NCBI GenBank assembly: GCA_051362555.1
Contig: CM120643.1
Coordinates: 6,014,001-6,078,000, forward strand
DNA: 64,000 nucleotides
Direction of reading: 5' to 3'
From: Lingula anatina
Taxonomy: Eukaryota > Animalia > Brachiopoda
The notes under the pieces were generated by a model that worked only from the letters and a program-made list of their open reading frames with translations, was not told where the DNA came from and made no database searches. The translations under genes and the position numbers were made by a program. Of the stretch, positions 16,054 to 56,150 are shown piece after piece. How positions within the stretch are numbered: the stretch's first letter is position 1; each line of letters begins with the position of its first letter.

Positions 16054-16205
16054 GACAAGTAAACTATTGTCCTCACTCTCTGACATACAAGTGGTGTTTA
16101 ATTCTGAATACTAAGTCCCGTATTATAATATTGCCCTATTGGAATGGTCCGTATGATAATCATATTTTTGGTTGGTTTTAATGCCATTTCATTTTGAATT
16201 GTCAG

Positions 16206-17580
16206 GTGGGAAGCACCAAAAAGGCAGCAAGGAAGAGAGTTTGTAGCTGAAATAAATACAGAGGTTTGCCGCTCCCTCAGCATAGAGAGGTCTGTGACAA
16301 GTGCCTATCATCCTCAGACCAATGGTCTGGATGAGAGGACAAATCAGACACTGAAGACTCGATTGAGCAAGCTCATTAATGAACACCAGAATGACTGGGA
16401 TACTTATTTGGAGGATGTGGCAATCAGGACACAAAAGCAAGCATCCACAAAGTTCACCCCTTTTTTCTAATGTTTGTGAGGCACCCTAGGTCTCTGAGAG
16501 AGGTAATTCTAGATTTAAAATTTTAATGATTAAGTAGACAACATAAATTTTGGAACATTTTATTATTATTTTCTGACATCTCAGTAATAGGTTTGTTACA
16601 TCACTGAAACTGTGTTTGAAAAGCAGTCTATGTGTAGCCAAAATGTGTAATAGATATGATATGCTTTGGTCTTGGCATTTATATCAAACCTATTTAATCT
16701 TTTAAATCATGCAGACCTCTTTTAGATTATTAGTTATTTCTATATATGCTTAAATGGCTGCACTACAAATATTTTATTTACCTATTTTTCATTCTTCTGA
16801 TTATTTTACTTAACAGGCTGTCTGCTAGTCATGATACTGATCTTGTCTTTACCTTAAATGAAGTGGGAAGCATGAAACATTACTCCTGTGTTCACAAAAA
16901 TAACATGATTAATTTTAAAGAGGTTTTCTAATTTCAATTGTGATTTCCATTTTTAGATGAATGCCAAAGATGGTGAAAGTATTGAAGCCATTTCTGTAAA
17001 TGATGAAGTTCTAGAAGACATGGTCAACCACAGAGAGGCACTGCTAGATGTCACCAATAAAGTTGTAAGTACAAAGACACACATAATGCGCTTCATTAAG
17101 GGTTCTAGCATGTTACAGTTGTATCAAAATTTTCTTTGAATATGAAATACTTTACTTGTTTTATGACTGCCTGTTATATTTGTGTCTCTAATAAGCAACT
17201 GTGCATTCATTACTAGGACATAGTATTTTAATGTACAGACACAGTGTACGTAGCCATCACCTGCCTCTGTCATGGTGCACTTTTTTCATTGTTACTTCAC
17301 TAACCTAAATACTGATATAGCTTTTTGCCTCAAAGTTATTAGTTAATTTGATGCCTGTATATGTGCCATCTTCACTGTCTATATTTTTCTTGTGTTTTTC
17401 TTAGGTACAAGAGAATGTGGAAAAGGCTCAAACAAAACAGAAGGAGAATTTTGCAAAGAGAAAGGCAAATGGCGTCAAATCCTTTGACCTTTCAGTTGGA
17501 GACATGGTCATGAAAAGGGCTATGAAAAACATTGGAAGGAAGGGAGGAAAAATGGAGCATCTGTGGACTGGGCCTTATCG
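16206..17580 (+). pseudogene. Ginger/GIN-type integrase (DNA transposon) fragment with spliceosomal introns
   Basis: Exons 16206-16502 (QGREFV...TSAYHPQTNGLDERTNQTLK...DWDTYL...STKFTPF), 16957-17064 and 17405-17580 (AQTKQKENF...VGDMV...GRKGGKMEHLWTGPY). A Gypsy-like integrase with GT-AG introns is characteristic of Ginger. Confidence 0.8.
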
Positions 17581-18191
17581 GTATGTATTTCTGCCAGAAC
17601 TTTTCTTTTAATGAGTTACTTGCTGCTCTTGATAACACGTGATTTCTGATTTCTAGTACTTCCACCATAATACATGTACATCTTAACACAACAAAACAAT
17701 AATTCAATATCTCAGAAGTAGAGGGGAAGATGTCTCTTGTCCACAGCACAGTGGAGTCTGCACAGCCAATCTACGAGAAGACGACACCATTGGGGACAAG
17801 CTTAACCACTGATGGGGATCGACAGCCGAGCCCAGCTGCATGTGACAATGTTGGAATTTTTTGGGACACATGACACTTTACCAAAGCTCTGAAAAAACAA
17901 ATAGAAAAAGCACCATTTTCTGGTCAAGTGTCTCCAGGAAAAACAAAATACACTAGAGACAAAATGCAAAAATGTTTTGCTCAGTGCATAGCAATATGCG
18001 CTGCTATTCTGAATTTGATGCTTGCTTTAGAGCAAATAAATAAATAAATAAATAAATAAATAAAGCAAATAAAGGGAACATTTAAGTCATAGTTAAGTCA
18101 TGTTGTCGTCTGAGACAACGTCAGTCATTCCATGTTGTCATCTAATGACCGCGTCATTTAAGTCATAGTTAAGTTAGGTTGTCTTTTAGGG

Positions 18192-18310
18192 ACAACGTCA
18201 TGTTTCACCACATCAGTACACCCTAAGTCCAAGTCATCCTTGGCGAAGATGTCTTGAAATTCACCTAACAGTTTCTCCAATTCACGAGTCTGGTCTTCAT
18301 CCAGGTACTT
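18192..18310 (-). pseudogene. Short Gypsy pol fragment (pre-RT), the only minus-strand coding fragment found in the mosaic
   Basis: Reverse strand reads KYLDEDQTRELEKLLGEFQDIFAKDDLDLGCTDVVKHDV. Confidence 0.75.
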
Positions 18311-19335
18311 GGTGCTTCGATTTCAACAAAAAGAAGGGTGTGAGTCCAAAACTACAGCAAAAATGGACTGGACCATAAGAAGTGGTAGATCGAATTTCAG
18401 ACCTAGTATACCGGATACAGCTTAGCCACAAGCATAAACCCAAAGTCGTGCACTACGATAATTTAAAGTTTTATCACTAACCCCAGAGTTCATGGTTTCA
18501 ATCGACACTTGTAGAGTCTCGACTTAGAGACTTACCTGAGTCGTGCGACGTCATGTATTCTGGATTTTCCATTTTCTGTTGTTGTCTCTAATACACCCCC
18601 CTCCCTTACATACCAGCAAAGTTGTTGGGTCAGCTTTTCAGTACCTCTCTCAGTAACTTACTTCTCTCCTTTCCTAGACATGCCAGACTGTCTGTTCTGC
18701 AAACACGGACCGAAGCAACCGCAAGCGCCATGAAAAGAGCTGCCTTAACTGCTATTGCGGGTTGAAATTTGTTGACAACAGAGTGTTGGTGGAACACTAC
18801 AAAAGAAAACATGCTCAGAAGAAGGAAGAGACGAACCCAGCAGGTCATACTATCCCAGAAGAACCTCCACTGCTAGTAGATGTTACACCTGTCGAGGAGG
18901 CATCCCTCATTCAGTCCCCTTCAACCAGCCCCAGGACATCTGAGAGAAAGCTAAAGGTAGGAACACCCCCTGACGAGTACCCAAGTTCCCTAGATGGTGA
19001 AGAAGACCAGCCAAACAGCAAAGTCCCCAGGAGAGCAGTAAAAGAGGGAGAAGTAGAGATGGATATGGTGGCTTTGTTCCAGAGAGTTAGGTGATTGCAC
19101 GAACGAGAGACACGCTACCCTGATGGGAGGCGAGACATAGTTCGAAACTTTTATTTTTAATGAAGAAACTTTTATTTTTAATGAAGAAAAAGAAAACCAA
19201 TAGAGAAAAAGATGAGAAGTTTTACGAATAAAAGGAAGAGAAAAGAAAACGATTAATAAAGTCTTGTTAAACTAAAAACGGGGTCTTATTTTGATTCAGG
19301 AGAATCAAATTTAAAAGGTTGGGGGTAGTGTATAT
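18311..19335 (+). mobile_element. 3' end of a Gypsy element: integrase GPY/F tail, extra ORF, PPT and start of 3' LTR
   Basis: KWTGP*EVVDRISDLVYRIQLSHKHKPKVVHYDNLK (~18360-18480), then ORF 18762-19094, then purine-rich tract aaaaggttgggggtag (19313-19328) followed by tg. Confidence 0.7.
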
Positions 19336-19669
19336 ATATATAACAAAGTCACAGTCAACCTGTCTATCTATAATAGCAGGTTACCAATAGGCCTAACTGT
19401 TAACTCCATCACATTTACAACAACTTATTCATCCCAGTGTTAGCTGACCTTGCAAGGAATTCAGTTTATTGGAATGTATTTCTGAATAAAAAGTTAAGAA
19501 AATTCACTAGTTAACTAAAGACACAAAACAACTGTCACTTTTACTTTAAAACCGTTTTGTCATTATTTTGATAAATTTAGTTACAGTATTGATAAACAAA
19601 GTATCACGTTTTCAATAATTAATATTTTAAATTACAATCTATAAATGCAAGGTTGTGTCATTGACCAAA

Positions 19670-19791
19670 ATACAACGTTGAGTCAACGTGGCTGGATCAA
19701 CATTGATTTTACCTTGAATTTAGGTAGATCAACGGCAATTCAATGTATCAACCTGTTTTCACATTGAACCAAAGCAACTATGCCTGCTGGG
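19670..19791 (+). mobile_element. Second EnSpm/CACTA-like right terminus
   Basis: caacgttgagtcaacg-type repeats ending in tgcctgctggg, related to 4120-4233. Confidence 0.5.
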
Positions 19792-19930
19792 TACTCATTA
19801 CTTCACATTGAACATGTCCACTGTATTTAATGTCACATTTCTATACAAACTAAATATCCTTTCATACAACTCTTGCAGTTTTTTCAAATTTCTAATAAAA
19901 TTCCAACCTTAATTTCTTTCTCTTTCACAG

Positions 19931-21154
19931 ATGGAGACCAAAGAAGTCATTGTAAAAAATGAGGCAACACCACTTAATCAAATGACGGTTACAGATGACA
20001 CAGGCTCAATAACAGTCAATTTGTAGAGAACAGCCACTACATCCCCAGTTAAACCGGGAAGTCGTTTGTCAGTGGAGGGCAACCTCCACTTCAATACATA
20101 TGAAAACCAACTGGTATGCCACGTCAATTCACCAGAAAATGTACAGGTAACCACACATTGAACATCTTTCCTCTTTAACTGTTTTTAAAATAATGCTAAT
20201 AATTTGCTATACTGTTTTTCAAGAAATAATCAACATTATACAAGCATTACAGATTATTCTAATAATTGTCAATTACATTGTTCACTTTTAAAACCAAAGT
20301 CCACACACAGGTCACTAACATATACATATCATGCTTAATTCATAGAAAATCATTATTACTGAGACCACTAAAAACCATTATTAACTTACATATAATAGCT
20401 TTCTATGTTATGATTAAGAATATTTTTACTTATATCATTATTATTCCAGATTCAAGAAAGTGAAATAGAGAAAGCCATCAAGTTATTGGGGATCAGTCAT
20501 GACCAGACAACTCAAGGCTTCCTTTTCTTTACTGAAGAAGAACAAGAATTACATATTTCTTTGGAAGAAGCAAGAAAAATATGGCCACACCCTTCAGAGG
20601 ATGAAATCAGCACAACCCTACCAATGAATATTACATCATGTGCAATAACTGAAGGACAAATGACAGATGTAGCAACACAGGGTAATTGCTGAAATTTTTG
20701 ACTCCCATCATGCCATACCATATACTATTAATACTATAATCAAAATTTATAACTTTCCTTATTTTAATAACTTAATATGAGACGCTAACTGAAACAACAA
20801 TGTAATATGTGCATACATACACAGCTATTGATCCAGTCCTCTGCCTCCTTGGCAGTGCTGTGAAAAAAACTGTTAAAATATACATACAATCCTACATTTT
20901 TTCAAAATGTTCAAACTATGATCATGTACCGCCACATAATGATTTTAAAGCCTCACTCAGAGTTTTCCATTTTTTTATCTTCAATGTTCATTGATATGAC
21001 ACAAACATTATCTTAGCGTATAACAACTGACAGTACCTCTTGTTACTGTTATGCATTTAACTGTAACTTATATTAGCTTTTCATTAATTACACAGATATA
21101 AAACCTTCAGACATAAGCAAGCCCACCATACCAGAGCCAGGTACCTCTGTTTGA
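19931..21154 (+). pseudogene. Spliced OB-fold (RPA/SSB-like) gene fragment, probably TE-borne
   Basis: Exons 19931-20146 (MTVTDDTGSITVNL*RTATTSPVKPGSRLSVEG; tag at the expected Trp), 20450-20681 and 21096-21154 are in frame. Confidence 0.55.
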
Positions 21155-22699
21155 AATAGCATTATGGTAAGCTTGCTTTCTTTTCATTGTAATATAACTG
21201 CTGAATAACACTATATTGCTTCAACTCAAAATCAGCTCTAAGCAAATGAACAAACTGTCTTTTTGGTAAACTTTGCCACAAATTTTTACAGTTTAAAATT
21301 TATTACTTAAGCACATGATCAAATTTGACATGAAATACTTTCATGTGTCAATAATTTCTTATAATTTCTGTTCCTATAATAAAAATATTAACAACAAAAT
21401 TTTCAGTTATATAAATTCGATCCCTTCTATGGTTAAAAATGTTATTTCAAAGATCTTTTTCGTGTCTACTATGGGGTCTCAAACACTCATACTTCTTTTT
21501 TTTTTTTTTCAGCACAAAAAGAAACGGGTTGCTAACTAAAATCAGCACAATCAGTTAATATTTACAGTAGTTTTTTTTTTCTTTTTTATTCTATGAGTCA
21601 TTTATGTAATGCTGATTAATGTATAATATACAAGCTGTACATTATTTTTTTGTCTGATGTTTTTCTCTTCTTTTTTTTTTTTTTTTTTTTTTTTTTTTGT
21701 TAATTATAATTTTGCCTTACTTTAGTTGTAAGTGTACTTTAGATAATGTCTATTACATATGATATTATCTAAAACTCGTTCAGGGTTTTAAGTTTCAATC
21801 AGTACTTCTGCTAATTGTTCAAGATTTTTTTTTATCTAGTTCAGAGTATTAAAATTGCCTTTCTACATTAGTCCACATGTATTGAGGAGTTTCTTGAAGG
21901 TATTTCTTTTAACTAACATTGCAAAAAAAAAATGTTTCATTTCTTTTATTATTATATATCTTAGTTTTATAACTTTTTCATAGTTTAGTTATTGTTATAC
22001 TTTTGATGTTAAAGTAAAATGTGAGTCAGCCTTGCTACTATGTACATATGATATTATCTTAAAGTCATCACAAGTTTTAAGTTTAAATCAGTATTTCTGC
22101 AAATTGTTCAACCTATTTTTCATGTAGTTCAGTATATGAAAATTGCCTTTCCACAGTAGTGCAGTTATTAAAGAGTTTGTTAAAGGCATTTCTTTGATCT
22201 TACAGTGTTAAATATGTAACTTTACATTTTAAGGCAACACATGCAAAATCCATATTCCAAAATCCATTAGCGTATCTACTGATCACAATCTGTGTCCTGC
22301 ATACCCCATGGTGCCACTGAATAAACAAATCACAGATCGTGATCGCTAGATACCACCAGTAGATTTTTTTAAATTTTGCGTGTGAACGAAGCCAAATAGT
22401 TATATATTAGTTTGTTATAGTGTCTTCTTTCTTTATTTTGATATCTTAAAAATAAATGCAATCAAATTACTTCACCCATTAGTCATGTGAGTATTTATCT
22501 ACAGCTAAATTGCCATCATGCTTACACTTTTTCATTTTTAACAGATATAGGACTACTATAAACCTTTCAATTTTCACTTAGCAAAATGCCCAGAGTCTGA
22601 AGCGCAGTTAGTACAACAGCTGAGTCTAAATAAAAAGAGCAGAAAATCCAAAACCAGATTATCTTTTTCATCCTTCTTAAAAAGTTACTGCGACATTAA

Positions 22700-25600
22700 T
22701 TTAAAAACAAGGCAGCAAAGCTGTCAAATGTACAGACAAAAAGCAGGAAATAACTATGCACAAAATAGGCTACTGCCAATTCTGATGCAAAAGTACATAA
22801 TGTTAAACTGCAAATTCAACATCAAATTTTAACAAGACAGCACTGTTCTGACATGGGTTTATTTCCATTTTTAACACTTTTTTAACATAAAACAAAATGA
22901 ACAGTTTACTGCCATTTTTATATGATCAACTAAGAAAATTAATGATATTGGAAAAATATCAATAGAACAGTGTTAAATGTCCAATTTCCTCCATTCTGAG
23001 ATTCTGAACATAGTGGATGATTGAATCTGACAAACTGCAATGATATGAGTTTATTTCCATTTTTGACACTTTATTACACAATACACGATAAAAAGTTTAA
23101 TCATTTTTACATAATCAACTAACAATGTTGTAAAGATGCAGGAAATGTCAAACAAACACTTTTACGTATCTTATTAGTTTAATAATGAGACTGTTAATAT
23201 GCCTAAGAATTGAATCTGAGGAAATGTGAAAAAACAGCACACCTTCTAAAATAATGGCCCGATTATGCTGATTTTCGAACTTGACCTGCATTTTAGTAAG
23301 ATTGACCACTCCTGTGAGTTTAATGGCAATTGGCCTATCGGTTTTTCTTATATTGTGTTTACAGTGTTGCATATATGCTGAAAAATGAAAAAACAGCATA
23401 ACTACTAAAATAGTGGCCCGATCATGCCGATTTTCGAACTTGATCTGCGTTTTAGTAAGATCGATTTTTCCTGTGAGTTTCATGACAACAGGCCTATCGG
23501 TTTTCCTTGAAATGTGTTAACAGTGTTGCATATATGCTGAAAAGTGAAAAAACAGCATAACTTCTACAATAATGGCTCGATCATGCTGATTTTCGAATTA
23601 GACCTGCATTTTATGAATATTCATCAGCTCTGTAAATATACAGCCAAAAAGTAAAATTGACTTCCACTTATCGTGTTTACAATGAAAGTGCACGGCACCA
23701 GTGACAGTGACGGCGACGACAGATGCAGGTGATGGCAATATGTACAGACACATCTGTACATATTTACTGTACTGTTTGAGAACAGTAAGTGACATGGTTT
23801 TTCTTAAATGCTCATCATGGGAGCAGTGTCCAAAACAGATTTTTTTTCAAATTTTGATGCAATATTACATAATGTTTAACAGCATAATGACCATCAATTT
23901 TTAATAATAAAATATTAGCATCATGGATATTCAGAAAATGTGACTAGCAAAGGTCTTCAGGCCCATGGAACTTCAAAGTCACAACTTGAAAATGCCAAAA
24001 TGTAAACAAGACAGCACTGTTCTGAAATGATTTTTTTTTTTTTTTCATTTTTAACAATTTTTTAAACATAAAACAAAATTAACAGGTTACTGCCATTTTT
24101 ATACGATCAACTAAGAAAATTGATGAGATGGGAAAAATATCAATACAACAGTGTTAAATGTCCAATTTCCTCCATTCTGAGATTCTGAACATAGTGAATG
24201 ATTGAATCTGACAAACTGCAATGATATGAGTTTGTTTCCATTTTTGAAACTTTATTACACAATACACAATAACAAGTTTACCATCAGTTTTACATAATCA
24301 ACTAATAATGTTGTAAAGATGCAGGAAATGTCAACCAAACACTTTTACATGTCTTATTAGTTAAACAATGAGACTGTTAACATGCCTAAGAATTGAATCT
24401 GAGGAAATGTGAAACAAGACAGCACTGTTCTGACATGGGTTTATTTCCATTTTTAACTTTTTTAACATAAAACAAAATAAACAGTTTACTGCAATTTTTA
24501 TATGATCAACTAAGATAATTGATGAGATGGGAAAAATATCAATACAATAGTGTTAAATGTCCAATTTCCTCCATTCTGAGATTCTGAACATAGTGAATGA
24601 TTGAATCTGACAAACTGCAATGATATGAGTTTATTTCCATTTTTGACACTTTATTACACAATACACAATTACAAGTTTACCATCATTTTTACATAATCAA
24701 CTAACAATGTTGTAAAGATGCAGGAAATGTCAAACAAACACTTTAATGTATCTTATTAGTAAAATAATAAGACTGTTAACATGCCTAAGAATTGAATCTG
24801 AGGAAATGTGAAAAAACAGCATAACTTCTAAAATAATGGCCCGATTATGCTGATTTTCGAACTCGACCTGCATTTTAGTAAGATTGACCACTCCTGTGAG
24901 TTTAATGGCAATTGGCCTATCGGTTTTTCTTATATTGTGTTTACAGTGTTGCACATATGCTGAAAAAAAGGAAAAAACAGCATAACTATTAAAATAGTGG
25001 CCCGATCATGCCAATTTTCGAACTTGACCTGCGTTTTAGTAAGATTGATTACTCTTGTGAGTTTCATGACAACAGGCCTAACGGTTTTCCTTAAAATGTG
25101 TTTACAGGGTTGCATATATGCTGAAAAGTGATAAAACAGCATAACTTCTACAATAATGGCCCGATCATTCTGATTTTCGAACTTGACCTGCGTTTTATGA
25201 ATATTCATCAGCTCTGTAAATATAAAACCAAAAAATAAAACTGTGTTCCACTTATCGTGTTTACAGTGAAAGTGCACGGCGACGGCATTGCCATCGGCAT
25301 CGGCATCGGCATCGGCATCGGCGACGACAGACGCAGGTGATGGCAATATGTACAGACACATCTGTGTCTGTACATAAAAATAACAAAACAATGTTCTTAT
25401 TTTAGATGTTATTCAACGATCTAAATAATATCAAAATAATGCAATAAAAAAAAGTCACATAAAATATATAGAAACACATAACCTGGCAAGTAGTCATAAT
25501 TCCATTATGTTTATCTTTTTCACAGTGATTCATAACATTGATATATCAATATTACACCAGATGTAAAAATTTTTGGAAACACAAAGATGCCAATAAAAAA

Positions 25601-26232
25601 TATTATTGGTATTTCAACAATTTTCTTACTTTTTATGTACAGACACAGATGTGTTTGAAAAAAAAAACATTTCAGAACACAGTGCTGTCTTGTTTACATT
25701 TTGGCATTTTCAAGTTGTGACTTTGAAGTTCCATGGGCCTGAAGACCTTTACTAGTCACATTTTCTGAATATACATGATACTTATATTTTATTATTAAAA
25801 ATTGATGGTCATTATGCTGCTAACCATTATGTAATATTGCATCAGAATAGAAGAAAACACAATTTTGGGTGCTGCTGCCATTATGACCATTATAGGAAAA
25901 TCATGTTACTTATGATTGCCAAACTTTCAAAAAAAAAAAAAAAAAAAAAAGGACTAAAATGCAGGCTGAGTTGGAAAAGCAGTCTAATTGGCTTCTTTTT
26001 CTGGAAGTTATACATTTTCAAAGTATGAACTTGAACTCCCATGGGCTTGAAGCCTTATGCTTGTTACACATTTTACTTACATTGGTATTACCTTTTGAGC
26101 ATAATTAAAATTTGATGTTCAATTTGCAGTTTAACATAATGTACTTTTGCATCAGAATTGACAGTAGCCTATTTTCTGCATAGTTATTTCCTGTTTTTTG
26201 TCTGTACATTTGACAGCTTTGCTGCCTTGTAA
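22700..26232. repeat. Complex direct plus inverted repeat block (foldback-like)
   Basis: Inverted pairs 22707-22830/26106-26230, 23855-24030/25667-25845 and 25355-25395/25617-25655. Direct copies start at ~22832, 24005 and 24413, with internal ~129-bp tandem units. Confidence 0.8.
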
Positions 26233-26389
26233 TGTTTTGCTTTGCACTTGTAGATAGGACTGAGGAAGAGGATTGTAAGACCCTTAATGGTGAGGGCCAG
26301 ATAGGTATGAAAAGAAAAGGTAACGTCCCTTCCTTGTCACTTAAACGGAGAAAAAAACTTTCATGCAGTAGGTATGACATTTCTTCTAA

Positions 26390-27050
26390 AACAATGTTAT
26401 GTCAAAGACATGCCTGGTTGACTAAAGATGAAATAACCCATGGAATTTTATCAGATATGTTCCCAAAGGTAGATTGAGGGCTTTCATGGTACTTGTGCCC
26501 TAGACCTTGTTAAAAATGGTCATTTTTTATCCAAGCCCACTTCTTCATTATTGCAGGCTTACTCTTTCCAACATTAATAGCAATAATAGCAATTGTGTTC
26601 AAATTCCAGACCTGGCCCCAGATCGAAGGGTAAGATTGCTGAGATCGTTGCCTCATTGCTTTTTGCTCCATCCAAGGAAATTGTATAGGAGCATATTGAC
26701 GTTCAGGAGCAAACTAGCAGAAATGACTGTGGTCTTTCTGACATTGCTAATGCAACGGCTCTGTGCTTTGGAACAAGACCTGGGGACTTCATTTGGGAGC
26801 AAAGGGGAACATCTCAGCAAGTGTTTTGAAAGGGGAAGACTGGAAATGTTCCCATATAGATCAGAGAAACGCCCTCATACAAGACCAAAAATGTCTAAAT
26901 TTCCAATATATTGTCATTGTAGGCAGGTCTATGATAGAAACCAGGACTGGATTGAATGTGAAGACTGCCTGCAATCAAAGTGCATCTGGAAAGGGATCTA
27001 GTCATCTGCCCTGGAGAATCTACAGCAGTCACGTTGTGTCTGTACATAAA
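26390..27050 (+). pseudogene. Ulp1-like protease + PHD finger, TE accessory gene fragment
   Basis: WLTKDEI...VQEQTSRNDCGLSDIANATALCFG...HLSKCFERGRLEMFP...IYCHCRQVYDRNQDWIECEDC, with frameshifts. Confidence 0.75.
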
Positions 27051-27339
27051 AATCACAGAATATGTATTGATGCCAAACTGAACTTATGGTGATGACATAA
27101 GTCACTTTATGTTTTAATAAAGTATGTCATGTAACTCAGACAAATAAAATACTTCATTGAAAGGATTGAATATACCTCAAGTGTGTTGAAATCAGTCTTC
27201 ATCTTTATAGCAGCAGGCAATGAGACCATAAAGCCAAATATTTGTGCTCAAGAACCAATGAAAATCACAGATAAAGTAACAACTGTCCAAAATTGGGAAA
27301 TTACCGAGTCATGAACAGCCATGAAGACATAAATACCCT

Positions 27340-27841
27340 CCACAGATATTATAAATTATCACTGCTAAATTACACCATACACATTTCATACTCTCAGACT
27401 ATACAACCTTTGAACCAGTGAAACCTCAGGCAAGTGAACCTTCTGACAAGCACACCTTTGGAACAGATGGGCATTTACATCTTCAAACTATCAGACCAAT
27501 GAACCTTCTGACTATTATAAAACCTTTGAACCATTGGATCTTGGCATCATCAAACTATCAGACCAATGAACATTCTGACTATTGAACCTTTTGAACCATT
27601 GGATCTTGGCATCATCAAACTATCAGACCAATGAACCTTCAGACTATTGAACCTTTTGAACCATTGGATCTTGGCATCATCAAACTATCAGACCAATGAA
27701 CCTTCAGACTATTGAACCTTTTGAACCATTGGATCTTGGCATCATCAAACTATCAGACCAATGAACCTTCTGACTATTGAACCTTTTGAACCATTGGATC
27801 TTGGCATCATCAAACTATCAGACCAATGAACCTTCTGACTA
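27340..27841. repeat. 65-bp minisatellite (copy 2, ~6 units)
   Basis: Units start at 27541, 27606, 27671, 27736 and 27801. Same family as 9190-9511. Confidence 0.9.
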
Positions 27842-28504
27842 CCGTCATGCACCTGACAAATCATTTAACAATAAACTCACAAAATGACAATTATATTTAG
27901 TAATTAAAATAAATTTCAGAATCAGAATCAGAAACACAGACAGACCAACATATCTACATTGCTATTTCAATTTGATGTACTCGAAATAAAATTAAAAAAC
28001 AAAAATACAGTTTATCAGTTATAGGATAAACAACAGATGTGTCATAAAGTGCTGACTATGGCAATGACACTGGACAGACACAGTGATCAGAATATAGACA
28101 GACTGAGAGTGTCTGTATATAATAAATATGTGATAAAACTTGCAATTGCAACTTAATGCCCTCACAATAACAGAGATCATCTATAACACATCATATCTGA
28201 CCTGAAATATATATTCACATTTAAACATTTTCACTGGTGCCCTTTTCTCTTCAGTGATGGCTTATTGTCTACCACAATCTCACTGTATATGCTACCTCTA
28301 CTAGTACTGTAACAGTTTCCATGCATATGGGGAAAATTATTATAACATATCACAACTGAGCTGAAATATCAATTCACTTTTAAACATTTTCATTGTGCCT
28401 ATTCACCTTCAGTGACAGGGTATTGTCCAACACAATGTCCTTGCTTTATATACCCTGCCTCTATAGTTTCCATGCATATGGGAGAAATTGATTCTTTGTG
28501 TTAC

Positions 28505-29700
28505 CTGGAACCCACATTTGTTGTGTAATTGTACTGTTCCATATAACTGGCTCCACAGGATCTGCTGTGTTTGGAAGTCTTGTTCTGGGTGGTTCTGGCA
28601 GCATTCTTGCTCACTCAGGATAAAACTGACCTCTTGGTCTGCCAGCAGCTCTTTATACAATTCCAGAAGTATATCTGAATCATCTCTGTAATTAAGTGCA
28701 AACTATTATTAGGAACCATCTTATGATACACTATTTATATATAGGATGCTTTTGTAAAATGCACAAAATCATTTTTGTATCACCATACCTGATATTTATA
28801 TTATGATACTGCTTATATGCAATGGTGATCAAATAAAAATATAATTATTCATTTTATGTTTTGTGCAGTTAATGACAATAAAACTTAAATTCACATTACA
28901 ATTAAAGCAGTAATATATTAATTCTATTCCTAATAATCCATGTTTTCTATATTGAAAAAAGTAACAATTGGTGTTTGTGTCTCTTCACAAAGAAAAGAGG
29001 AGAAACAAATTACCTATCCTTATTTGTATGAAACACCAACCACAAACATTTCTGTGCTCTCAGCAAGAGTTCCAGTCACCAGTTTACAATGACTGCCCTG
29101 TCTCTGGCTGTTCATTCATCCTAAAACTTGACACATCCCGTGTCTTGCACAACTGGGTGATATGAAGATGTTTCTGTTGCTGCCTTTTTATGTCTGCTTC
29201 TTATAAAATACATGTCCCCCATGTTCAGCCAGGTAAAGTCAGTTCACCTAGAAGACACCATGCTGTATGGAGACTGGAGCTGGAAAAAGAGACATGACAA
29301 TGTACACGTATAAGTGAAGGAACACAAATTATCTTAATACAAAGAAAAGACAAAAACCTGACAGTCCACCAGAGCCAGTTGGAAAAAAAATTAAAACTAA
29401 GGTACACTGCCAAGTAGTCACGTTATATGGTAGACATCATTGCTCTGGTGATTGAACTGTGATAGTTAGGAAAAGACAACACAGAAACCCTATTGCTCCT
29501 TAATTCTGCTAGAACTTTTTACGTTTTACCTCAGATGTTTCCAGGAATCCAGATCTACTGTATAACACTTATAACACTAGGATCACCGGATCCCTTTATC
29601 TATCCTCTACCTCTTGTCTCTGAAGCTCCTTCCTCTCTCTCTCTCTCTCTCTCTCTCTCAAAAACCCCGCTCAACTGTCGCTTTCAATCCCAAGACTTCC
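28505..29700 (-). ncRNA. Putative spliced 5' end of a leftward (minus-strand) transcript, no recognisable protein
   Basis: Minus-strand donors (plus-strand ttac/tcac) near 29527, 29246, 29011 and 28502. Pyrimidine-rich acceptors near 29280 (tctcttttttccag), 29121 and 28686. Not confirmed by expression data. Confidence 0.35.
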
Positions 29701-29965
29701 GGTACCAGATCACTACAACATAGTACTCACCCTTTTGTCATCAAGAATGTCTTTGCATGCAGTAAAAAAGATTCCAGAATCGTGGACTGTCCTAATGTTT
29801 CAGATCAAACTTTTATGGTAACTCAAAAAAATATCTTGTCCTTGGAATAACGTTATTTCATAACGTGTAAAATTTTCCCGCTCCGCCTAAGCCCGACTAA
29901 GTAGGTCAAAGAAAACCCGCAGTGAATACTGGGTCGCATCTCGGTACATCCGGTCACATGAATCG
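29690..29965 (-). promoter_or_regulatory. Promoter-like CpG-richer patch
   Basis: ETS-like acttccggt (~29695), E-box gtcacatg (~29953), locally elevated CpG just upstream of the putative first exon. Confidence 0.3.
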
Positions 29966-30889
29966 CCGAAGTTTTACTCTGAGACCAAGTCATTATTTCT
30001 TTTGATTTTTCATTAAATGATATTATTGATTATTGATTGACAATATATTTTCACAAAAGGGTAATTCAATTTTTTTAATTGTTATTATTATTATTTTCTT
30101 TTTGCTTCAACTTTTGATGGATCTCAGCTAACACAACGCTAAATGGAGCATTTATAGATGCATACAAAGTCAATTTTTGTCACAAAAACCAACCAAATGC
30201 CAGCATGTAGTTTCAAGTAGTATAACTAAGAGAATTACCAAAAGGCATCGTTTAATTTTACCCGAAAATGATGTTTGAACAGATTTTTCTGCTGGCATTC
30301 TAATTAAGCTGTATGTCAATGGGGCAGGAAAGTAGGTCACGAAAGTAGGTTAAATTTACAACCAAAAATTTAAAGAAAGGAGCAGTCTTAAGGTCTTTTG
30401 TGGCTGATCGAGTGATCTATTCAGTTTATCCCTTGGTATGTCGAATTTATTTGAGTCACATAAGAATCTAGTAGAAGTGGTTTAGGCCTACAGGTGTTAC
30501 TGGGAATCCACGCTCCACCGATGCTCGGTTCGTATGTACCTTTAAGGACCTTCACATTTAGAGTAATTACCATTAAAAGTATAATAAACGTACTTGGAAA
30601 TATTCTAAAGTCAATTTTTGCCTAAATATCCTGCAAAGCTACTAGTACCTGCATTTTACTTTTGTAGACTGCGCTAGTAGGCTTTATATTACATGCACGT
30701 TTGTTTTTTCAAAACGTCTGAATTTTTTCCTCAATTCCAAGTATATTTTCTCATTGCCTGGTAACGAAGGTTTTGCAGAGGGCTTTCTAAGAGAATGCAG
30801 TTTTGTCATGTTTCGTGTAAAACATCTGACTGTGCCCTATTAACATATCGTCCATCTAATCATGAGGGCCCGCTGGGAAGGGGAAGGGG

Positions 30890-33800
30890 GGGGGTGATCA
30901 CAGTTCACGGCCACAGGAAATAAAATCATCAAATTACAAATCACATAAATTAATTAAAAACTTTATTCGTATTCCATTGAAAATGCTAGTCTGGCGAGCT
31001 GAAAATAATCGAGTATAGCCTAATGACTTCGTTCCACTAAGGACGAAGGATAGAAACCCGCAATTCACGATTCACAGGAATGGGGTGCTTCACATCTCGG
31101 GGAATGATAAGTGGATGTTACGAGCAAGGAAAATACCCAACGGGGCCTTCAGTCCTTGTCTTAACTAAAATGAAGATTTAATTAATGTCTAAAATATTTC
31201 AAAACATAAAAGCAACTAAAATTAATGATCTAGAGCAAAAATACGCCATGAAGGATTTTTCAGCTTTTAAAAGTAGCTGCAAGTTATTTATTGCGTTATT
31301 TAAGATGAACATTCTAGACATTTTCTGAGACGTTACACATTATACTTGCTTCCAAACAGGTACCTAAAATTTCTACTTTATTTAAAACTTGAAATAAAAT
31401 CTCTCTCTCTCTCTCTCTCCGGTTGTCTTTGCCGAATTCACAATAAGTTGATCCTCGGACCAGAATCAGAAAACAAACCTCTTTTATGATAATTAACTGT
31501 TATGACTGATAAATGAAACTACATTTTTTCATTCGACAGCATCTTCCGTATCTTTACGAAAAATATATATTGAAAACGCATCTGTAAAGATTAACTCTGA
31601 AAGATAAAAAAAAAAGCTTTTCGCTTGTAAACCTTCTTCAGGTACTAAAACAAGAATAAACAAGCAAACTACAGGGATGCGTGACGTATGATGCATGGAA
31701 AATGGACACGAAGTTAGAAGTGCGTGATAAAGGTTAACGTCTTGAAGATTGCGTAATAATAAAACAAGAATAATATTCGTTGAGATATTCATTGTCTCCA
31801 TAAAGTCCTTTTTTGAAGTGTCTAATATTTTTATAAACTTCTCGACAATCCGTCTTTGTCTTGTGTCGCGTATGTGTCCTTTTAAAATGGTGACTGTTTG
31901 TACTGTGGTGGTTCATGATGCGAGTTTTAAGGGCTTTTTTTCTATCGTTTTCACTTTTAATTACTGTTAGTTCTATTACTGTACATAGATACCAATTATC
32001 TGCGCTTTAAGCTTGTACTTTTTATTACAGATACAAGCAAGGCAAGCAAAAAGTCTCTGGCAGTGAATTGTGAACTGTTGCTGCTACCACTCCTACATAA
32101 AGTAGATATTGCAAACATATATCGACACATGAATCAATAAGATATCAGACAACTTTCACGGAAAATAAACTGAAATTAAAGCTGGATATTCTTTTAACTA
32201 TTATCATTTCGCATTTACGTTAAATCTCGGCACGTACGTCTTCATCACCATCATACTTTAGTCGCAGTCCGAAGCGACGAAGTTCAAACAGTGCACATCA
32301 AAACCATAAATAGGAGTCCTTACGTAGGAAACATCGAGAACGGGTTTAATTAAGGCATTCTTGTTAGCGGTATTGTCACTATTTTAGGGAATCATGAACA
32401 AATCTGGATGGCTCTATCTATAAAAAAGCAATTGTTACCTAAAAATAAAAAAAAATACTTTTCAGAATTAATGCAAGAAAAATTAATGAAAAGAACAAAG
32501 GCAAAATATTTTTAATTAAAAATAGAATCTGAACGACAAATACAGCTTCAAGCAAATAAAAATGAAAATAGAATATCAATATATCCACCCTTGACTTACA
32601 ATTAATTTTTAAAATAATGTCGGTACCTTGTCAATGTATGGCAGGACTGCGTGAAAACGACATACACCCTTCCCTACACATACACTAAACACACACACAC
32701 GCGCGCACACAGGCTCGAAGAGGGGGAGAGTCAAATCCAATCATTGAAGTTATACATCGGTTCATTGTTTGTCCTAAGTAAATCATCATAAAATAAACAA
32801 ATCAGATCAAAATTATAATAAAGCGCGGAATGTGCAGACCAGCAAAACGACTCTTCCCCGTTGCCAAAGCTCTTAATCCAGGTCTATCTTTTAAAATGAA
32901 ATATTTTATTGTATAACAAAAACAAAAAAAAAAAAAAAAAAAAACGTATAAAACAACAGACTTCGGTCAAATAATCTAGCTGTGTGTAATACTGTGCATG
33001 AACCCAAAATATATGCTATAGATGTAACATTATCAAAATAGAAATACCATATCTTCTTCAACATGAAAAGTCACATTAGAATTCTCCCCCCCCTCCCCCC
33101 CCCCCCCCCGTCCCACCAATACGCCCCATTTCTATTGATACCATACAAACTCAGCGTGTGTAGGAGTGTAAAAACTAAAGTAGATCAAAAGTTCACAGAT
33201 AGGATATGCCATGTAAAGATTCATAGGGGAGATAGGTAATCTCCTTTTGCTCTTTTTTTTAACCTGTCAATTTTGAGAAGAAATACAGTGAATCGGTGTC
33301 TCTCATTGCACTTAGTCAATATAAATTCAAATATGTAAAAAACATCTTTCCTTTATCACGTAATTCGTCAGAGGTAATAAAATACAGCATTTCCCTAGAA
33401 AACCTTTACCCCCTCTGGTGAATGCAATGTGCCGTCTGCAGAGCTCAGCGTCTGCTACCTCGCTGGATGCTTCGCGGTTCCCGGGATGTGAACAGTTAAC
33501 GCGGTCCAAAAATTTTTAGGGAGAGTCAGATGAAATATAGAGGGACCGTGGCATCTATAAAGTTCTACATGATGAAGCTGGAGATTTGGGCTAGTTTTAC
33601 TCTTTTCTTTCAAAGTTTGCAATATACTCTGACTTTCAGTACCCCCATGCAAGCAAAATAATTTGCTGGTATCTTGATATATCTCCCACTTGTGTCTCCC
33701 CCCTAAAACGGTCCACACTAAAAAATCAATAATCGTATGGCAATTTTATACAGGCAATTGACCTACTTTTATACCCGTGCAGCTATTGTCGAGTTTAATG

Positions 33801-34099
33801 GCTATGGAGTGAAAACGTGATACACGTCTGTGATATAAAAATTATTTCTAATTACATAATTTACCAACAGTACATTTGGATTAAACGTGTCCAGATTTGT
33901 GAGCAAAAGATGACATTGCTATATGAAAATAATGAAAAAATTGGAGACCAGCCAAAATCAAGAAAAATGCATATTTTCTCTTATATGCAAATTAGGTTCC
34001 TTGAAGTAATATAAGACTGGCCGGAAGTGATGTTCAAAGATTTGTAACGATGGTGATCTTGATGGCCTTGATGATCATAATAATAATAATAATAGGGCC

Positions 34100-34130
<31 letters not shown>

Positions 34131-34520
34131 TTTATTGAGCACTAAAATGTTTCAGTACATTTTGCAGGCCCTCTAAACTACTTGTATATAAATACATTTA
34201 GTACATTTAATTTAATTTCATTACATTTAATGGTGGTTCAAAAAATATTATCAGAGTTTTCAGTTGTCATCTGGTGAGAAAGAAATTTTCTGCACAAACA
34301 CAATCAGTAAACGCGCCTCAGATGCGCTGCAGACGTCACGGCTTTTGGGCGAAAGTCACACGCGACATTTCGTCATAATTGTTTGATATTATAGGTAAAA
34401 AACTGTGATTGAAAATGGATATCGGCAAAGCATTAACATTTTGACAGCATTTCTATTTAGATCTATAAGTGTTCGACAAGGATGAATTTAATTAGAATAC
34501 CCTCTCTCTCTCTCTCTGTT
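30890..34520 (+). repeat. Diverged dispersed duplication, copy A
   Basis: 30890-31140 matches 58875-59110 and 32850-34520 matches 60180-61650, in the same order and orientation. Confidence 0.8.
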
Positions 34521-37500
34521 TTTTTTTTAAGCGAATATAAAGGAGAAAGCCGAGCGAAAAAATAATGCGCATAACAGTCAAAATATTCAGAAGTAAAAAA
34601 ATTCAGAGTTGAAAATCTTGTTGGCCACTACAGTTCCTCTTCATAGAGGACCACATGCAAAATTTTAAGGCAACTTGTAGCCTTTTCAATTGATGTTGTA
34701 AAGTAAATGACTTACACTTTCACTAACTGCAGATAAAGATTATAACGGAATCAAACAAGTTAAAGGATAGGGAGTTATTGAGTGTTGCGCCGACAGACAA
34801 CTCACAACGTAAATAACAACAATAACAACAACAATCTACACGCAATATGGTAACGTGCATATCGGTAACGCAGTGGTGGATTTAGAGGTTTCTGAAATAT
34901 ATATCGCACCAATATTCCCCTCTTGAAATTAGAATTTCGTCTAACCTTTGTATATTTTTAATTGGAAAATCTATTTATTGATATTATTCCATTTTTTCAC
35001 AAAAATTATTTGTTTTTCTTATAAAAATTAAGTGAAAGGGAAAAGATTAGAGGGAGAAAAAGAGCAACAATTGAACATACATATTTCCCCTCCAAAATAT
35101 CCTTTATTACAGTGAAATAATGAAGAACATACATACTATTGGCATGCATGTACCAAAAACAAAAAGACTTTCACTAGTATCTAAAAATGAAAATCAATAT
35201 ATCTTCATACATAAAGAACAATGTACTAACTCTAAAAAAATTAACAAAATTTCAAGTATGACATTACAGTATGGACAAGCCTCTATTCAACAACAACAAC
35301 AAAAAAAAAAAAAAAAAAAAAAAAATCAATAGAACAATTTTAAATATCTAATTTCCTCCTTTCTGAGACTCTGAACACAGTGAAGGATTGAATCTGACAA
35401 ACTACACTAATATAATTTTATTTCCATTTTTGATTCTTTATTTCAAGATACAGGATAACAGATTTACCATCATTTTAATATAAACAAGTGACAAAATTGT
35501 TAAGATGCAGAAAATGTCAAAAGAACATGTTTACATATGCAATTAGTTCAATTGAGACGTTTAACATGCCGAAGAATTGAAAATGGCATAGGTGACAGCA
35601 ATGTACAGACATGGCTGTAAATAAAAATCATATATAAGTGAATGTTGCAATGGTGTGGGACAAATTTTCTTCCAGCCTTCTTAAAGCTTTTATATTTGTA
35701 CAACATTAATAAAATTTCCATCTGAAGACTTCTAAATGTATGTCATATGACATACAGTTTAATACCAGAAAGACAAAGCATCAATATGTCTTGTATACTG
35801 TAAAATAAAAAATTATCTTCTACCCTTTTCTGAACCAAGACAACAGTTCTTGGAATGTTGAGTACACCAAGGAAGCCAACACAGATGTATTTCTAGGATA
35901 ATGTATTAAAATAAACTGCAAAGTGCTGTTTTTGATTTTCATCTGGATTCTTCATTTCAACTCCGCTCTTACATTAACTAAGCTGTATCATTTCCCTCAC
36001 ATTTTTAAATACAACAAAAATATCATTATTACGGGTCAGATAATACTTGTCATGGAACTTTTTTGTTGGTTGTATTTGCCTTAGCACTTCTTTTAATTCA
36101 GTCCATTAATCCAGTTAATATATGTGCTAACTACTATGTAATAATACAGTCTCATGGTTACGTCTTGCAATCTGTAAAGCCTACAGATTAATCAAGATTT
36201 TAAAAATCTGTTCACTGATTTCTTATTGTTAAATTAGCAACAAATAAACCAAATATTGGTATGAGAGTTCTTTGAGGAATATTTTATGTGCAAGCATGTG
36301 GGCTAAAGTTTCTGCAAACAGAACATCAGCACAAACACTATATTCAAACAGGAGGACTGACTCTTTAATAGCGTAACATTTTATCTGGAACTATTTAGTA
36401 AACAGGAATTACAATTCTTCATCAGAGTTGGAAAGCTTCACCCATAAAAGAACAAATATATTATATGGGTTTAATATAACACTTCATAATAAAGTTTCAT
36501 CATAACTACCAACATCTATTCTGCTTTGTGCAAGACATATTTCCTCTCGACACATGGATAAGACAAAGTGCTGCTCTTGGTGCTGTCTTTCGCTGCCTGC
36601 ATTTTCATGGTAAGGGTACTCTAAAAAAAGAATATAACAGAAAAAACTGAAAATTACATTGGAAAGACTAGCAAATCCAAGGACTTAAAATAGTTAAACG
36701 TTAATAATTTTGTCAAATCTTGTCTAATATTTCTGAAATTTGTACAAATGATGCTTAACAACAATAAAAATCTGTGATTAGATGATCTGTTGACTATATC
36801 TAATGAAAAGTGTTTTTTGGGACAATTAATTTAGGACAACTGAAATTTACATTGAAAAGACTGGCAAATCCCATGACTTAAAATAGTTAAATGTTGATAA
36901 TTTTGTCATATCTAGTCCAGTGTTTCTGAAATTTGTACAAATGAAGCTTAACAACAATAAAAACCTGTGATAAGCTGATCAAATGACTGTGTCTAATGAA
37001 AAATATCTTCTTTCGACAATATCCTTGAAAAAACTGAAAAGTACACTGAAAAATCTGGCAAATTCCATGGCTTAAAATAGTTAAATGTTAATAATTTTGC
37101 AATGTGATTATAAAATAAAATAGCAAACATGATGATTTGAGGTTGTTTGTGTAGGAGGTTGCAAATTACCTATAACTGTTATCTGAAAAACAATATATAC
37201 CCATACAAGACTTCTCCTTACTATCAATGCCAGATGCAGATTACTCCTTACAATCGGTTTCTGGAATGGGTTGTTGCTATCACAGTATTTGACAATGTCC
37301 TAAATCTTGCCTCATATCATGTATTGTACACATGGATAAGACATAGTGCTGCTCTTGGTGCTGTCTTTCACTGCCTGCATCTTCATGGTAAGGGTACTCT
37401 GGAAAAAGAACAATATAACTGAAAAAACTGAAAATAACATAGAAAACGCTGGCAAATTCCATGACATAAAATAGTTAAACGTTAATAATTTTGTCAAATC

Positions 37501-39519
37501 TTGTCCAATATTTCTGAAATTTGTACAAATGATGCTTAACAACATTAAAAACCTGTGATTAGATGATCTGTTGACTGCATCTAATGAAAAGTGTTTTTTG
37601 GGACAACATATTTGGGAAAACTGAAATTTACATTGAAAACACTAGCAAATCCCATGACTTAAAATAGTTAAACGTTAATAAAATTTTCAAATCTTGTCCA
37701 ATATTTCTGAAATTTGTACAAATGATGCTTAACAATAATGAAAATCTGTGATTAGACGATCTGTTGACTGTATCTAATGAAAAGTGTTTTTTGGGACAAC
37801 ATATTTGGGAAAAATGAAATTTACATTGAAAAGACTGGCAAATCCAAGGACTTCAAATAGTTAAACGTTAATAATTTTGTCAAATCTAGTCCAGTGTTTC
37901 TGAAATTTGTACAAATGATGCTTAACAACAATAAAAACCTGTGATAAGCTGATCAAATGACTGTGTCTAATGAAAAGTATCTTCTTTCGACAATATCCTT
38001 GAAAAAACTGAAATATACACTGAAAAATCTGGCAAATTCCATAGCTTAAAATAGTTAAATGTTAATAATTTTGCAATGTGATTATAAAATAAAATACCAA
38101 ATGTGATGATTTGAGGTTGATTGTGTAGGAGGTTGCAAATTACCTATAACTGTTATCTGGAAAGCAATATATACCCAAACAAGACTTCTCCTTACTATCA
38201 ATGCCAGATGCAGATTACTCCTTACAATCGGTTTCTGGAATGGGTTGTTGTTATCACAACATTTGACAATGTCCTAAATCTTGCCACATATCATGTATTG
38301 TACACATGGATAAGACATAGTGCTGCTCTTGGTGCTGTCTTTCACTGCCTGCATCTTCATGGTAAGGGTACTCTGGAAAAAGAACAATATAACTGAAAAA
38401 ACTGAAAATAACATAGAAAACGCTGGCAAATTCCATGACATAAAATAGTTAAATGTTAATAATTTTGTCAAATCTTGTCCAATATTTCTGAAATTTGTAC
38501 AAATGATGCTTAACAACAATGAAAATCTGTGATTAGATGATCTGTTGACTGCATCTAATGAAAAGTGTTTTTTGGGACAACATATTTGGGAAAACTGAAA
38601 TTTACATTGAAAACACTAGCAAATCCCATGACTTAAAATAGTTAAACGTTAATAAAATTTTCAAATCTTGTCCAATATTTCTGAAATTTGTACAAATGAT
38701 GCTTAACAATAATTAAAATCTGTGATTAGACGATCTGTTGACTGTATCTAATGAAAAGTGTTTTTTGGGACAACTTATTTGGGAAAAATGAAATTTACAT
38801 TGAAAAGACTGGCAAATCCAAGGACTTCAAATAGTTAAACATTAATAATTTTGTCAAATCTAGTCCAGTGTTTCTGAAATTTGTACAAATGATGCTTAAC
38901 AACAATAAAAACCTGTGATAAGCTGATCAAATGACTGTGTCTAATGAAAAGTATCTTCTTTCGACAATATCCTTGAAAAAACTGAAAATAACATAGAAAA
39001 CGCTGGCAAATTCCATGGCTTAAAATAGTTAAATGTTAATTATTTTGTCAAATCTTGTCCAATATTTCTGAAATTTGTACAAATGATGCTTAACAACAAT
39101 AAAAACATGTGATTAGATGATCTGTTGACTGCATCTAATGAAAAGTGTTTTTTGGGACAACATATTTGGGAAAACTGAAATTTACATTGAAAACACTAGC
39201 AAATCCCATGACTTAAAATAGTTAAACGTTAATAAAATTTTCAAATCTTGTCCAATATTTCTGAAATTTGTACAAATGATGCTTAACAATAATTAAAATC
39301 TGTGATTAGACGATCTGTTGACTGTATCTAATGAAAAGTGTTTTTTGGGGCAACTTATTTGGGAAAAATGAAATTTACATTGAAAAGACTGGCAAATCCA
39401 AGGACTTCAAGTAGTTAAACATTAATAATTTTGTCAAATCTAGTCCAGTGTTTCTGAAATTTGTACAAATGATGCTTAACAACAATAAAAACCTGTGATA
39501 AGCTGATCAAATGACTGTG

Positions 39520-39856
39520 TATGGAAGCGTATAAGTGCCAAAACACACAACAAAATCACTCAACACACAACACAATTTCAACACGACACATTTAACTTTT
39601 CGACACAACACCAAGGAAAATCGCAACACAACACATTAACTTCTCGACACAACGGAAATAGATGGCGCTTTCGGCGCGGACGTCTTGGAAAAGCCGCGAA
39701 AACCCACAGAACGATTCTGTGATTGTTTCCTTTTTTCTCAAGGCATTTATAATAATGTGTCACTTTTGGGTCCAGGAAAAGCGCACTTTTGAAAACATTG
39801 TATTACAGAGAAGTTTTAATATCAGATAATCTGTTGTAAATGTTGCATATTCTATG

Positions 39857-39893
<37 letters not shown>

Positions 39894-42875: not shown

Positions 42876-42927
<52 letters not shown>

Positions 42928-43269
42928 CATAGAATATGCAACATTCACAACAAATTATCTGATATTAAAACTTCTCTGTAGTACAATGTTTTTAAAAGTG
43001 CGCTTTTCCGGGAACCCAAAGTGACACATTATTATAAATGCCTTGAGAAAATAAGGAAACAATTACAGAATCGTTCTGTGGGTTTTCGCGGCTTTTCCAA
43101 GACGTCCGCGCCGAAAGCGCCATCTATTTCCGTTGTGTCGAGAGGTTAATGTGTTGTGTTGCGATTTTCTTTGGTGTTGTGTCGGGAAGTTAAATGTACG
43201 TGTCGTGTTAAAATTGTGTTGTGTGTAGAGTGATTTTGTTGTGTGTTGTGGCACTTATACGCTTCCATA
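39520..43269. mobile_element. Non-autonomous long-TIR DNA transposon, IS3EU-like
   Basis: Termini tatggaagcgtataagtgcca / tggcacttatacgcttccata. TIR similarity extends ~430 bp, including (gt)n/(ac)n. Exact 6-bp TSD actgtg (39514-39519, 43270-43275); removal restores the satellite unit. TAY..RTA ends with a 6-bp TSD match IS3EU. Confidence 0.85.
40303..42467. mobile_element. Nested non-autonomous TIR element with 9-bp TSD (MULE/foldback-like)
   Basis: TIR agagcgctgaagtt / aacttcagcgctct. TSD gtgtcaaat at 40294-40302 and 42468-42476. Many internal copies of gtgtcgtttttc(g/a)aaaacgattctgg in both orientations. Confidence 0.85.
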
Positions 43270-52600: not shown

Positions 52601-52601
52601 A

Positions 52602-56109: not shown

Positions 56110-56150
<41 letters not shown>

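Follow-up and report, generated by a model that had tools for sequence, protein, structure and literature searches.

We found that the window, by which we mean the whole 64,000-nucleotide stretch of DNA analysed here, carries on its minus strand a gene for a spliced non-coding RNA whose start faces a mosaic of broken transposon pieces, and we put at about one in two the probability that this gene is the leader of a flamenco-like source of piRNAs made from one strand of that mosaic. The locus is accordingly described here as a candidate leader of a flamenco-like piRNA cluster. In the model that we favor, RNA polymerase II would start at a promoter with ETS and E-box motifs and no TATA box. Either of two alternative first exons is then joined to a common exon at 29,279, which is followed by a third exon, steps that are supported by reads at the level of a gene family. 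Many molecules would probably end early, at a weak poly(A) signal at 28,239, and the minority that pass it would run across the antisense mosaic and be processed into antisense piRNAs. The one-way layout of the mosaic would follow from selection that favors insertions in antisense orientation.

Of nine RNA-seq runs that carry one species label (selection: PolyA, Oligo-dT or unspecified), seven, X1-X5, X7 and X8, were aligned, with 6-26% of each run read. Two regions served as targets: 26,250-31,050 for the stranded poly(A) run X1 and for X4, X5 and X7, and 8,800-28,740 for X1, X2, X3 and X8. As the alignments of X2 and X3 end at 28,740, the evidence for the start and for the junctions near 29 kb comes from X1. 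In the exon bins with depth between 28,021 and 29,952, first mates of X1 covered the plus strand at 26-559x and the minus strand at 0-2.4x, and depth was zero in the bins 28,826-28,986, 29,309-29,469 and 29,953-30,113. Two joints were recovered exactly: 29,279 to 29,731 (47 reads, 25 starts), which removes a GT-AG intron from 29,730 to 29,280, and 29,279 to 29,530 (18 reads, 10 starts), which removes a GT-AG intron from 29,529 to 29,280. Both read CT..AC on the plus strand, that is GT..AG on the minus strand, and thereby fix the orientation of the library, so that the stranded reads match a spliced RNA of the minus strand. The first joint also occurred with one other letter (33 further reads) or two (29 further reads), and the second with one (13 further reads). 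The next exon is linked by joints from 28,668 or 28,674 to 29,082 or 29,112 (24, 12 and 22 reads), and a joint from 28,670 to 29,732 was seen in 12 reads. At the upstream side, five molecules end at 29,895, and X1 depth is 54 in 29,792-29,952 and 0 in 29,953-30,113. Transcription of one strand thus has a discrete start, with a depth limit at ~29,895-29,952, as seen in X1 and in reads that represent the family and are not proven to be this haplotype's.

Table 1. Features of the locus, with positions counted from the first letter of the window.
Feature	Position	Strand	Remarks
Mosaic of broken transposon pieces	1-27,100	+	Pfam matches: DUF6729 (2), ALS2CR8 (2), DDE_Tnp_1, P2RX7_C, Myb_DNA-bind_5, RVT_1, rve_3 (one each)
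First transposon-like piece	26,250-27,089	+	1.6-17x antisense coverage
Minor downstream exon or extension	27,216-27,852	-	12-57x minus RNA; 65-bp tandem array
Likely proximal poly(A) site	28,239-28,266	-	Variant AATAAG at 28,266-28,261; end pile at 28,239
Exon 3	28,021-28,677	-	5' limit ~28,675-28,677; 214-258x in X1-X3 over 28,085-28,740
Common exon 2, non-coding	29,014-29,279	-	Acceptor 29,280; X1 depth 559
Alternative first exon	29,530-29,700	-	Donor 29,529; 18 + 13 joint reads
Candidate promoter of alternative first exon	29,695-29,703	-	Second ETS-type motif ACCGGAAGT
Main first exon	29,731-~29,895	-	Donor GTGAGT at 29,730; 5' limit approximate; X1 joint reads
Candidate core-promoter element	29,946-29,960	-	E-box CATGTG (29,960-29,955) overlapping ETS-type CCGGATGT (29,953); motif search
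Kolobok-type non-autonomous element, 386 bp	30,156-30,541		AG...CT ends; 8/10 terminal inverted repeat
Tandem array of 11 exon 2 homologs (predicted non-coding exons)	36,500-49,736	-	193-bp repeats between

The initial annotation had predicted from the letters alone that minus-strand transcription begins at a discrete site and that its 5' exons are spliced and non-coding. The stranded reads bear this out, although several of the predicted exon limits have to be redrawn. The predicted exon at 29,530-29,700 is used together with the donor and the acceptor assigned to it, but the main first exon had been missed. The intron proposed at 29,121-29,247 is exonic, with 370 reads at 29,161 and 207 at 29,131; this stretch is read through, so the two middle exons of the prediction are a single exon. 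In most X1 reads that exon ends near 29,080 and exon 3 begins near 28,675 rather than at the proposed acceptor side at 28,686, and the proposed donor at 28,504 was unused among the 15 of 26 X1 joints listed. Four X1 reads are compatible with a donor at 29,013 in a diverged copy, and this donor of exon 2 is common to the array copies described below. In the alignment of the alternative first exon a (CT)n repeat was skipped, which makes the 5' limit of this exon at 29,700 provisional. Exon 3 contains an internal duplication of 157 bp (28,182-28,338 and 28,341-28,489; 75%).

We found no sign that these exons encode a protein. The longest ATG-initiated reading frames across nine spliced models were 33-55 amino acids long, and the 53 amino acids of the main model are of chance length (shuffle median 43; 95th percentile 83). 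A Pfam scan of stop-to-stop frames of at least 45 amino acids in the transcribed region around 28-30 kb (hereafter, the head) gave no match, in agreement with the earlier statement that no recognisable protein is present. Likewise, no Rfam family matched at gathering score in the whole 64-kb window (three matches in 26.5-31 kb were at chance level; E 0.4-4.2), and the two sequences that were folded, exon 2 and one array copy, showed no unusual fold (z = -0.30 and -0.06). A conserved, tandemly amplified non-coding exon could be the carrier of a structured small RNA such as a snoRNA or miRNA, in which case the locus would be a host gene, but the Rfam and folding results argue against this for known families. 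A micropeptide gene is opposed by the chance length of the reading frames and by stops in all three frames of all ten complete array exons. We consider either of these extremely unlikely.

The sequence above the exons is a candidate promoter, as had been proposed from an ETS and E-box patch in this region. The patch lies ~50 nt upstream of the main start, and the minus-strand matches to CCGGAWGT at 29,953 and at 29,702/29,703 are two of the six in the 64-kb window; we take these motifs to be of ETS type, and CATGTG to be an E-box. No TATA box was found near either start. The ratio of observed to expected CpG rises from 0.08 in 27,850-29,500 to 1.14 in 29,660-29,970, with the best change point within 20-35 kb at 29,667, and it is still high (0.92) up to 35 kb, which makes this the edge of a domain rather than an island. 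The mosaic from 10.7 to 29.5 kb has a ratio of 0.32, and equally deep depletion occurs at 35-39, 44-52 and 54-57 kb. Low CpG ratios are described as the mark of historical germline methylation of invertebrate gene bodies (PMC4378018), and the depletion across head and mosaic would match what is expected of a transcribed body methylated in the germline. Comparison of the promoter with 51.5-52.8 kb and 57.9-59.5 kb gave no similarity above shuffles.

Splice signals had also been said to change polarity at the right side of the mosaic, and this holds for donors only. By a strict donor pattern that we built ourselves from the consensus, there are 58 plus and 20 minus donors in 1-27,300 (p = 2e-5), compared with 1 plus and 8 minus in 27,850-29,950, a flip that is clear when head and mosaic are set against each other (Fisher p = 3.7e-4) but borderline when the eight minus donors are compared with shuffles (mean 4.0; P = 0.06). 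Acceptors in the head showed no flip (1 plus and 2 minus by the strict pattern; four on each strand by the loose one). A cruder splice matrix gave 14 plus and 6 minus donors in the mosaic, 0 plus and 2 minus in the head, and unbiased acceptors.

The mosaic toward which the gene points lies in a repeat-rich window of ~35% G+C. Scanning all 306 stop-to-stop frames of at least 45 amino acids in 1-36.5 kb (150 plus, 156 minus) gave nine matches to seven Pfam families that we take to be associated with transposons, and all nine were on the plus strand. Four of the nine exceeded the curated cut-off; those to DDE_Tnp_1 and Myb_DNA-bind_5 were weak and that to rve_3 fell below it. The remaining Pfam matches on either strand were weak and apparently unrelated. 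Those transposon pieces downstream of the head that can be recognised, a part of all the pieces there, are therefore antisense to the minus-strand RNA, as had been claimed. Their content is one reverse transcriptase piece, one integrase piece and mostly pieces of DNA transposons. The piece closest to the head, at 26.2-27.1 kb, has putative Ulp1/C48-protease and PHD-like motifs on the plus strand but no Pfam match, and its 26.5-27.0 kb part gave no usable match in a protein atlas or a homolog search.

How far transcription runs into this tract bears directly on our interpretation. X1 depth declines through 463, 255, 168, 58 and 3 between 28,664 and 27,860, and is back at 57 in 27,699-27,859. 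Farther left, coverage is 12-34x as far as 27,216 and 1.6-17x as far as 26,250, with minus RNA making up almost all of it. We infer a splice across the low-depth gap (3x; 27,860-28,020), for which the joint was absent among the 15 of 26 listed. Fragment ends pile up at 28,239, 22 nt downstream of the variant signal AATAAG (37, 44 and 62 molecules in X1, X2 and X3). This is likely a poly(A) site, an alignment break being the alternative cause of the pile, and it suggests that polyadenylation ends many of the molecules early. Farther out, in 17 bins across 10,795-22,099, minus RNA was present at 0.48, 0.54 and 0.31x and plus RNA at 0.075, 0.055 and 0.036x in X1, X2 and X3, a minus bias of 6.5, 9.8 and 8.6 to 1. 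This distal depth of 0.3-0.5x amounts to ~25-43 read-equivalents per run, 400-820 times under the head (28.1-28.7 kb), and the trace reads could derive from other antisense copies. The count omits 22,100-26,754, a high-copy inverted-repeat element that is deep in X1, X2, X3 and X8, and 8,800-10,794, which holds a duplicated 65-bp unit and another small element, as such repeated sequences attract reads that originate at other places.

The initial annotation had proposed a precursor reading through 1-27 kb and had named a short polyadenylated transcript ending before 27 kb as evidence to the contrary. Each is partly borne out: low antisense coverage extends to 26,250, but the depth in 10.8-22.1 kb is far below that of the head, and the end pile at 28,239 points to a short form. 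We also dropped one argument for read-through, a depletion of poly(A) signals, as AATAAA is not depleted on the minus strand of 1-22.7 kb (33 seen, 22 expected). The signal does not occur on the minus strand of 25,789-30,100; near the head, its absence (0 seen against 1.9 expected) falls short of significance (P = 0.12).

These data raise a real, if lesser, possibility that the gene makes an ordinary spliced and polyadenylated lncRNA of ~1 kb, a member of a locally amplified family that happens to lie beside a transposon graveyard, with no piRNAs depending on it and the trace antisense reads reflecting leaky termination or cross-mapping. The loss of most poly(A) depth by 28.2-28.0 kb, the end pile, the steep fall to the distal depth, the undepleted poly(A) signals of the mosaic, and the homologous array exons at 36-50 kb, which have no transposon mosaic directly behind them, all favor a short RNA of this kind. 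It leaves unexplained, however, why ~27 kb of recognisable pieces all face against the promoter and why the trace reads have an antisense bias of 6-10:1. Moreover, long and rapidly processed precursors are expected to be under-sampled in poly(A) libraries, and short poly(A) reads from other animals have little power to test for a precursor that is long and possibly polymorphic.

The annotation had offered as its own alternative that the exons are the inside of a Kolobok-like element, on account of a gtacctttaa end to the right of the head. This end is real, but it closes a separate, self-contained element of 386 bp (Table 1) that sits upstream of the transcription unit and excludes it, and we rejected a Kolobok interior as the home of the exons. 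Kolobok elements are characterized by RR...YY termini, a short inverted repeat and a TTAA target duplication (PMC9587614), and for 30,156-30,541 alone we found such termini, an inverted repeat, TTAA and dispersed copies. In the window the right flank is TTAA and the left flank TTAT, and nearly all reads carry TTAA at the left flank as well (restored at 30,155). X1, X4, X5 and X7 all cover both strands of the element, and reads of X4, X5 and X7 exit it at 30,151/30,152 and 30,545 into varied flanks. In size it differs from the LTDRs of KolobokP, which are given as ~450 or 660 bp in that source.

The exons could still belong to the interior of a transposon, whether Kolobok, KolobokP or another non-autonomous type, with its own promoter, given that the reads behave as multi-copy and that KolobokP forms with one terminal repeat and an internal part are on record (PMC9587614). 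We regard this as very unlikely: the Kolobok end is part of a closed unit that has both its termini and flanks of TTAA type, reads exit this unit at both edges into many sequences, and within the window we found no Kolobok termini enclosing 28-30 kb and no second copy or partner end. A search of 27.9-30.1 kb for a transposase or nuclease (DDD/E, or the His-Me type of KolobokP) gave no Pfam match and no long frame.

The gene apparently belongs to a small family with several copies. Only 186 of the 3,332 aligned X1 reads were at least 99% alike to the window, and near-fixed read differences were common (for example at 29,764, in 173 of 179 reads). Most reads therefore do not stem from the window's haplotype, and the activity of the window's exact copy is not proven; the reads come from other alleles or paralogs. 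In addition, 45% of X1 reads continue into unlike sequence, with at least five junction variants, some joints step back by 136-140 nt, as expected of tandem copies of exon 2, and none of three loose read ends was found in the window at up to three mismatches. The region 27,324-27,841 is partly duplicated at 9,170-9,513 (89%).

All of these observations would be expected if the window held a silent or decayed paralog, with the expressed members elsewhere and the mosaic a former cluster or a duplicated fragment. We think this unlikely, as the window retains GT/AG at the exact joints (47 and 18 reads) together with the two ETS motifs and the CpG-rich promoter, and the fixed differences could also be allelic between animals.

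A further sign of amplification lies to the right of the gene, in the tandem array at 36-50 kb. Exon 2 and the array unit are 66-69% alike over 86 nt (E 3e-6 to 1e-3), and their global score of 24 compares with a shuffled mean of -51 and maximum of -15.5 (300 shuffles). The array has 11 strong acceptors, ten of which are followed 229-234 nt downstream by a donor, ATAG/GTAATTTG, that matches the one in the head.

In its layout the locus resembles Drosophila flamenco and flam-like unistrand clusters, which have a discrete promoter, alternatively spliced non-coding 5' exons, transcription of one strand, transposon pieces antisense to the transcript and restricted expression (PMC4120762, PMC10643416 and PMC6724695). 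The alternatively spliced flamenco precursors share a common first exon (PMC4120762, PMC10643416), whereas here two alternative first exons lead to a common second exon. Antisense Gypsy elements are enriched in flam (PMC10643416), whereas the mosaic does not look rich in Gypsy and consists mostly of pieces of intron-bearing DNA transposons. Further differences are that the leader here seems to exist in several copies, that the bulk of its poly(A) RNA looks short and that its piRNA output is predicted. The short RNA with a weak extension into an antisense tract also recalls the core clusters of mosquitoes, in which transcription of an upstream gene is described as running past its end into unidirectional, antisense foreign pieces (bioRxiv 10.1101/2022.08.22.504762). 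That upstream gene is taken to be coding in the mosquito model, and the Aedes tract is enriched in viral insertions, whereas here the gene is non-coding and the read-through is shown for only ~2 kb. In molluscs, piRNA clusters are rich in pieces of Gypsy, Kolobok, hAT and Harbinger and are specific to stage or tissue; they were defined by small-RNA reads, with no promoter or spliced leader described in the parts of those papers used here (PMC6128900, PMC11067994).

The amplified exon allows a more speculative and rather improbable extension of the flamenco-like reading, namely that a multi-copy leader module, made of the ETS/E-box promoter and the conserved exon, has been duplicated to start one-strand piRNA clusters. 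The exon, present 11-fold in the array and in tandem in expressed paralogs, would be a cis signal that routes RNA to piRNA processing, and the weak poly(A) site would set the amount of run-on. For flamenco, cis elements that direct the RNA downstream of them into processing have been reported at the 5' end (PMC6724695). A literature search over titles and the start of abstracts, with subscription papers and supplements outside its scope, returned nothing on paralogous or shared promoters of invertebrate piRNA clusters. If such a module exists, a flamenco-like architecture with a portable licensing element would occur outside insects; if piRNAs are absent, the locus would represent an ordinary lncRNA family restricted to its lineage. 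Beyond flies, mosquitoes and mammals, it is an open question how the transcription of piRNA precursors begins and how the cell distinguishes them from ordinary RNAs. To approach it, this locus offers a transcription start with its splice junctions, motifs of a candidate promoter, a putative weak poly(A) site and an exon that is both conserved and repeated.

Expression of the gene was restricted to one of the three studies represented. Depth over 28,085-28,740 was 1-2x in X8, compared with the high coverage in X1-X3 (Table 1), and X4, X5 and X7 had at most 4.7x in the head and no head joint. Expression was thus high in all three runs of study P1 and near nil in all four runs from P2 and P3.

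The exon 2 of the head, the minus-strand spliced non-coding RNA gene that starts at about 29,895, has relatives elsewhere in the window, where 11 copies of a predicted non-coding exon are arrayed in tandem on the same strand (see table). All 11 copies have strong predicted acceptors, and each array donor is preceded, 13 nt before it, by another strong predicted acceptor. The exons are spaced 778-975 bp apart, with 193-bp repeats between them, and an inverted-repeat element of ~3.7 kb (39,520-43,269) breaks up the array. The array may represent a second lncRNA on the minus strand, with its start near a stretch richer in CpG at 52.0-53.5 kb. The plus-strand exons within 52,600-58,700 likely belong to a host gene, which may share a bidirectional promoter near 52.3-52.6 kb.

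Features of the window outside the head
Feature	Position	Strand	Remarks
Tandem array, 11 copies of a predicted non-coding exon	36,500-49,736	-	homology to head exon 2
Exons with repeated short acidic/lysine-rich units	52,600-58,700	+	sequence inspected by eye
zf-RVT frame (LINE 3' end)	57,056-57,940		inside 52,600-58,700 region
Integrase core, then apparent introns	16,189-17,580	+
RT piece	14,767-16,050		neighbour of integrase piece
High-copy element	22,705-26,230		terminal inverted repeats, internal arrays
Small inverted-repeat element	52,888-53,450		arms 93 bp, 96%

Within the mosaic of broken transposon pieces, we take 6,008-6,640 (+) to be a CACTA/EnSpm-like transposase motif joined directly onto a second Ulp1-like protease piece; Pfam gave no match for either. 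With its apparent introns, the integrase piece may resemble Ginger-type DNA transposons rather than the adjoining RT piece. The high-copy element has terminal inverted repeats at 22,707-22,832 and 26,105-26,230 (96% identity) and an interior of 159-bp and 399-bp arrays. It is deeply covered by reads in X1, X2 and X3, RNA-seq runs of one study, and in X8, from another, with sharp loose ends, where reads continue into other sequence, at 22,704 and 25,380, and also at 26,230 in X2 and X3.

Positions 9,170-9,513 and 27,324-27,841 form a duplication (89% identical) that includes a 65-bp tandem array, and its left copy is interrupted at about 9,512 by a CpG-rich element. This element spans about 9,512-10,692 and, by eye, seemingly has inverted ends. 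The segments at 30,885-34,515, upstream of the head, and 58,869-61,657, close to the window's right-hand edge, share 69-75% sequence identity and would represent an old duplication or shared repeats.
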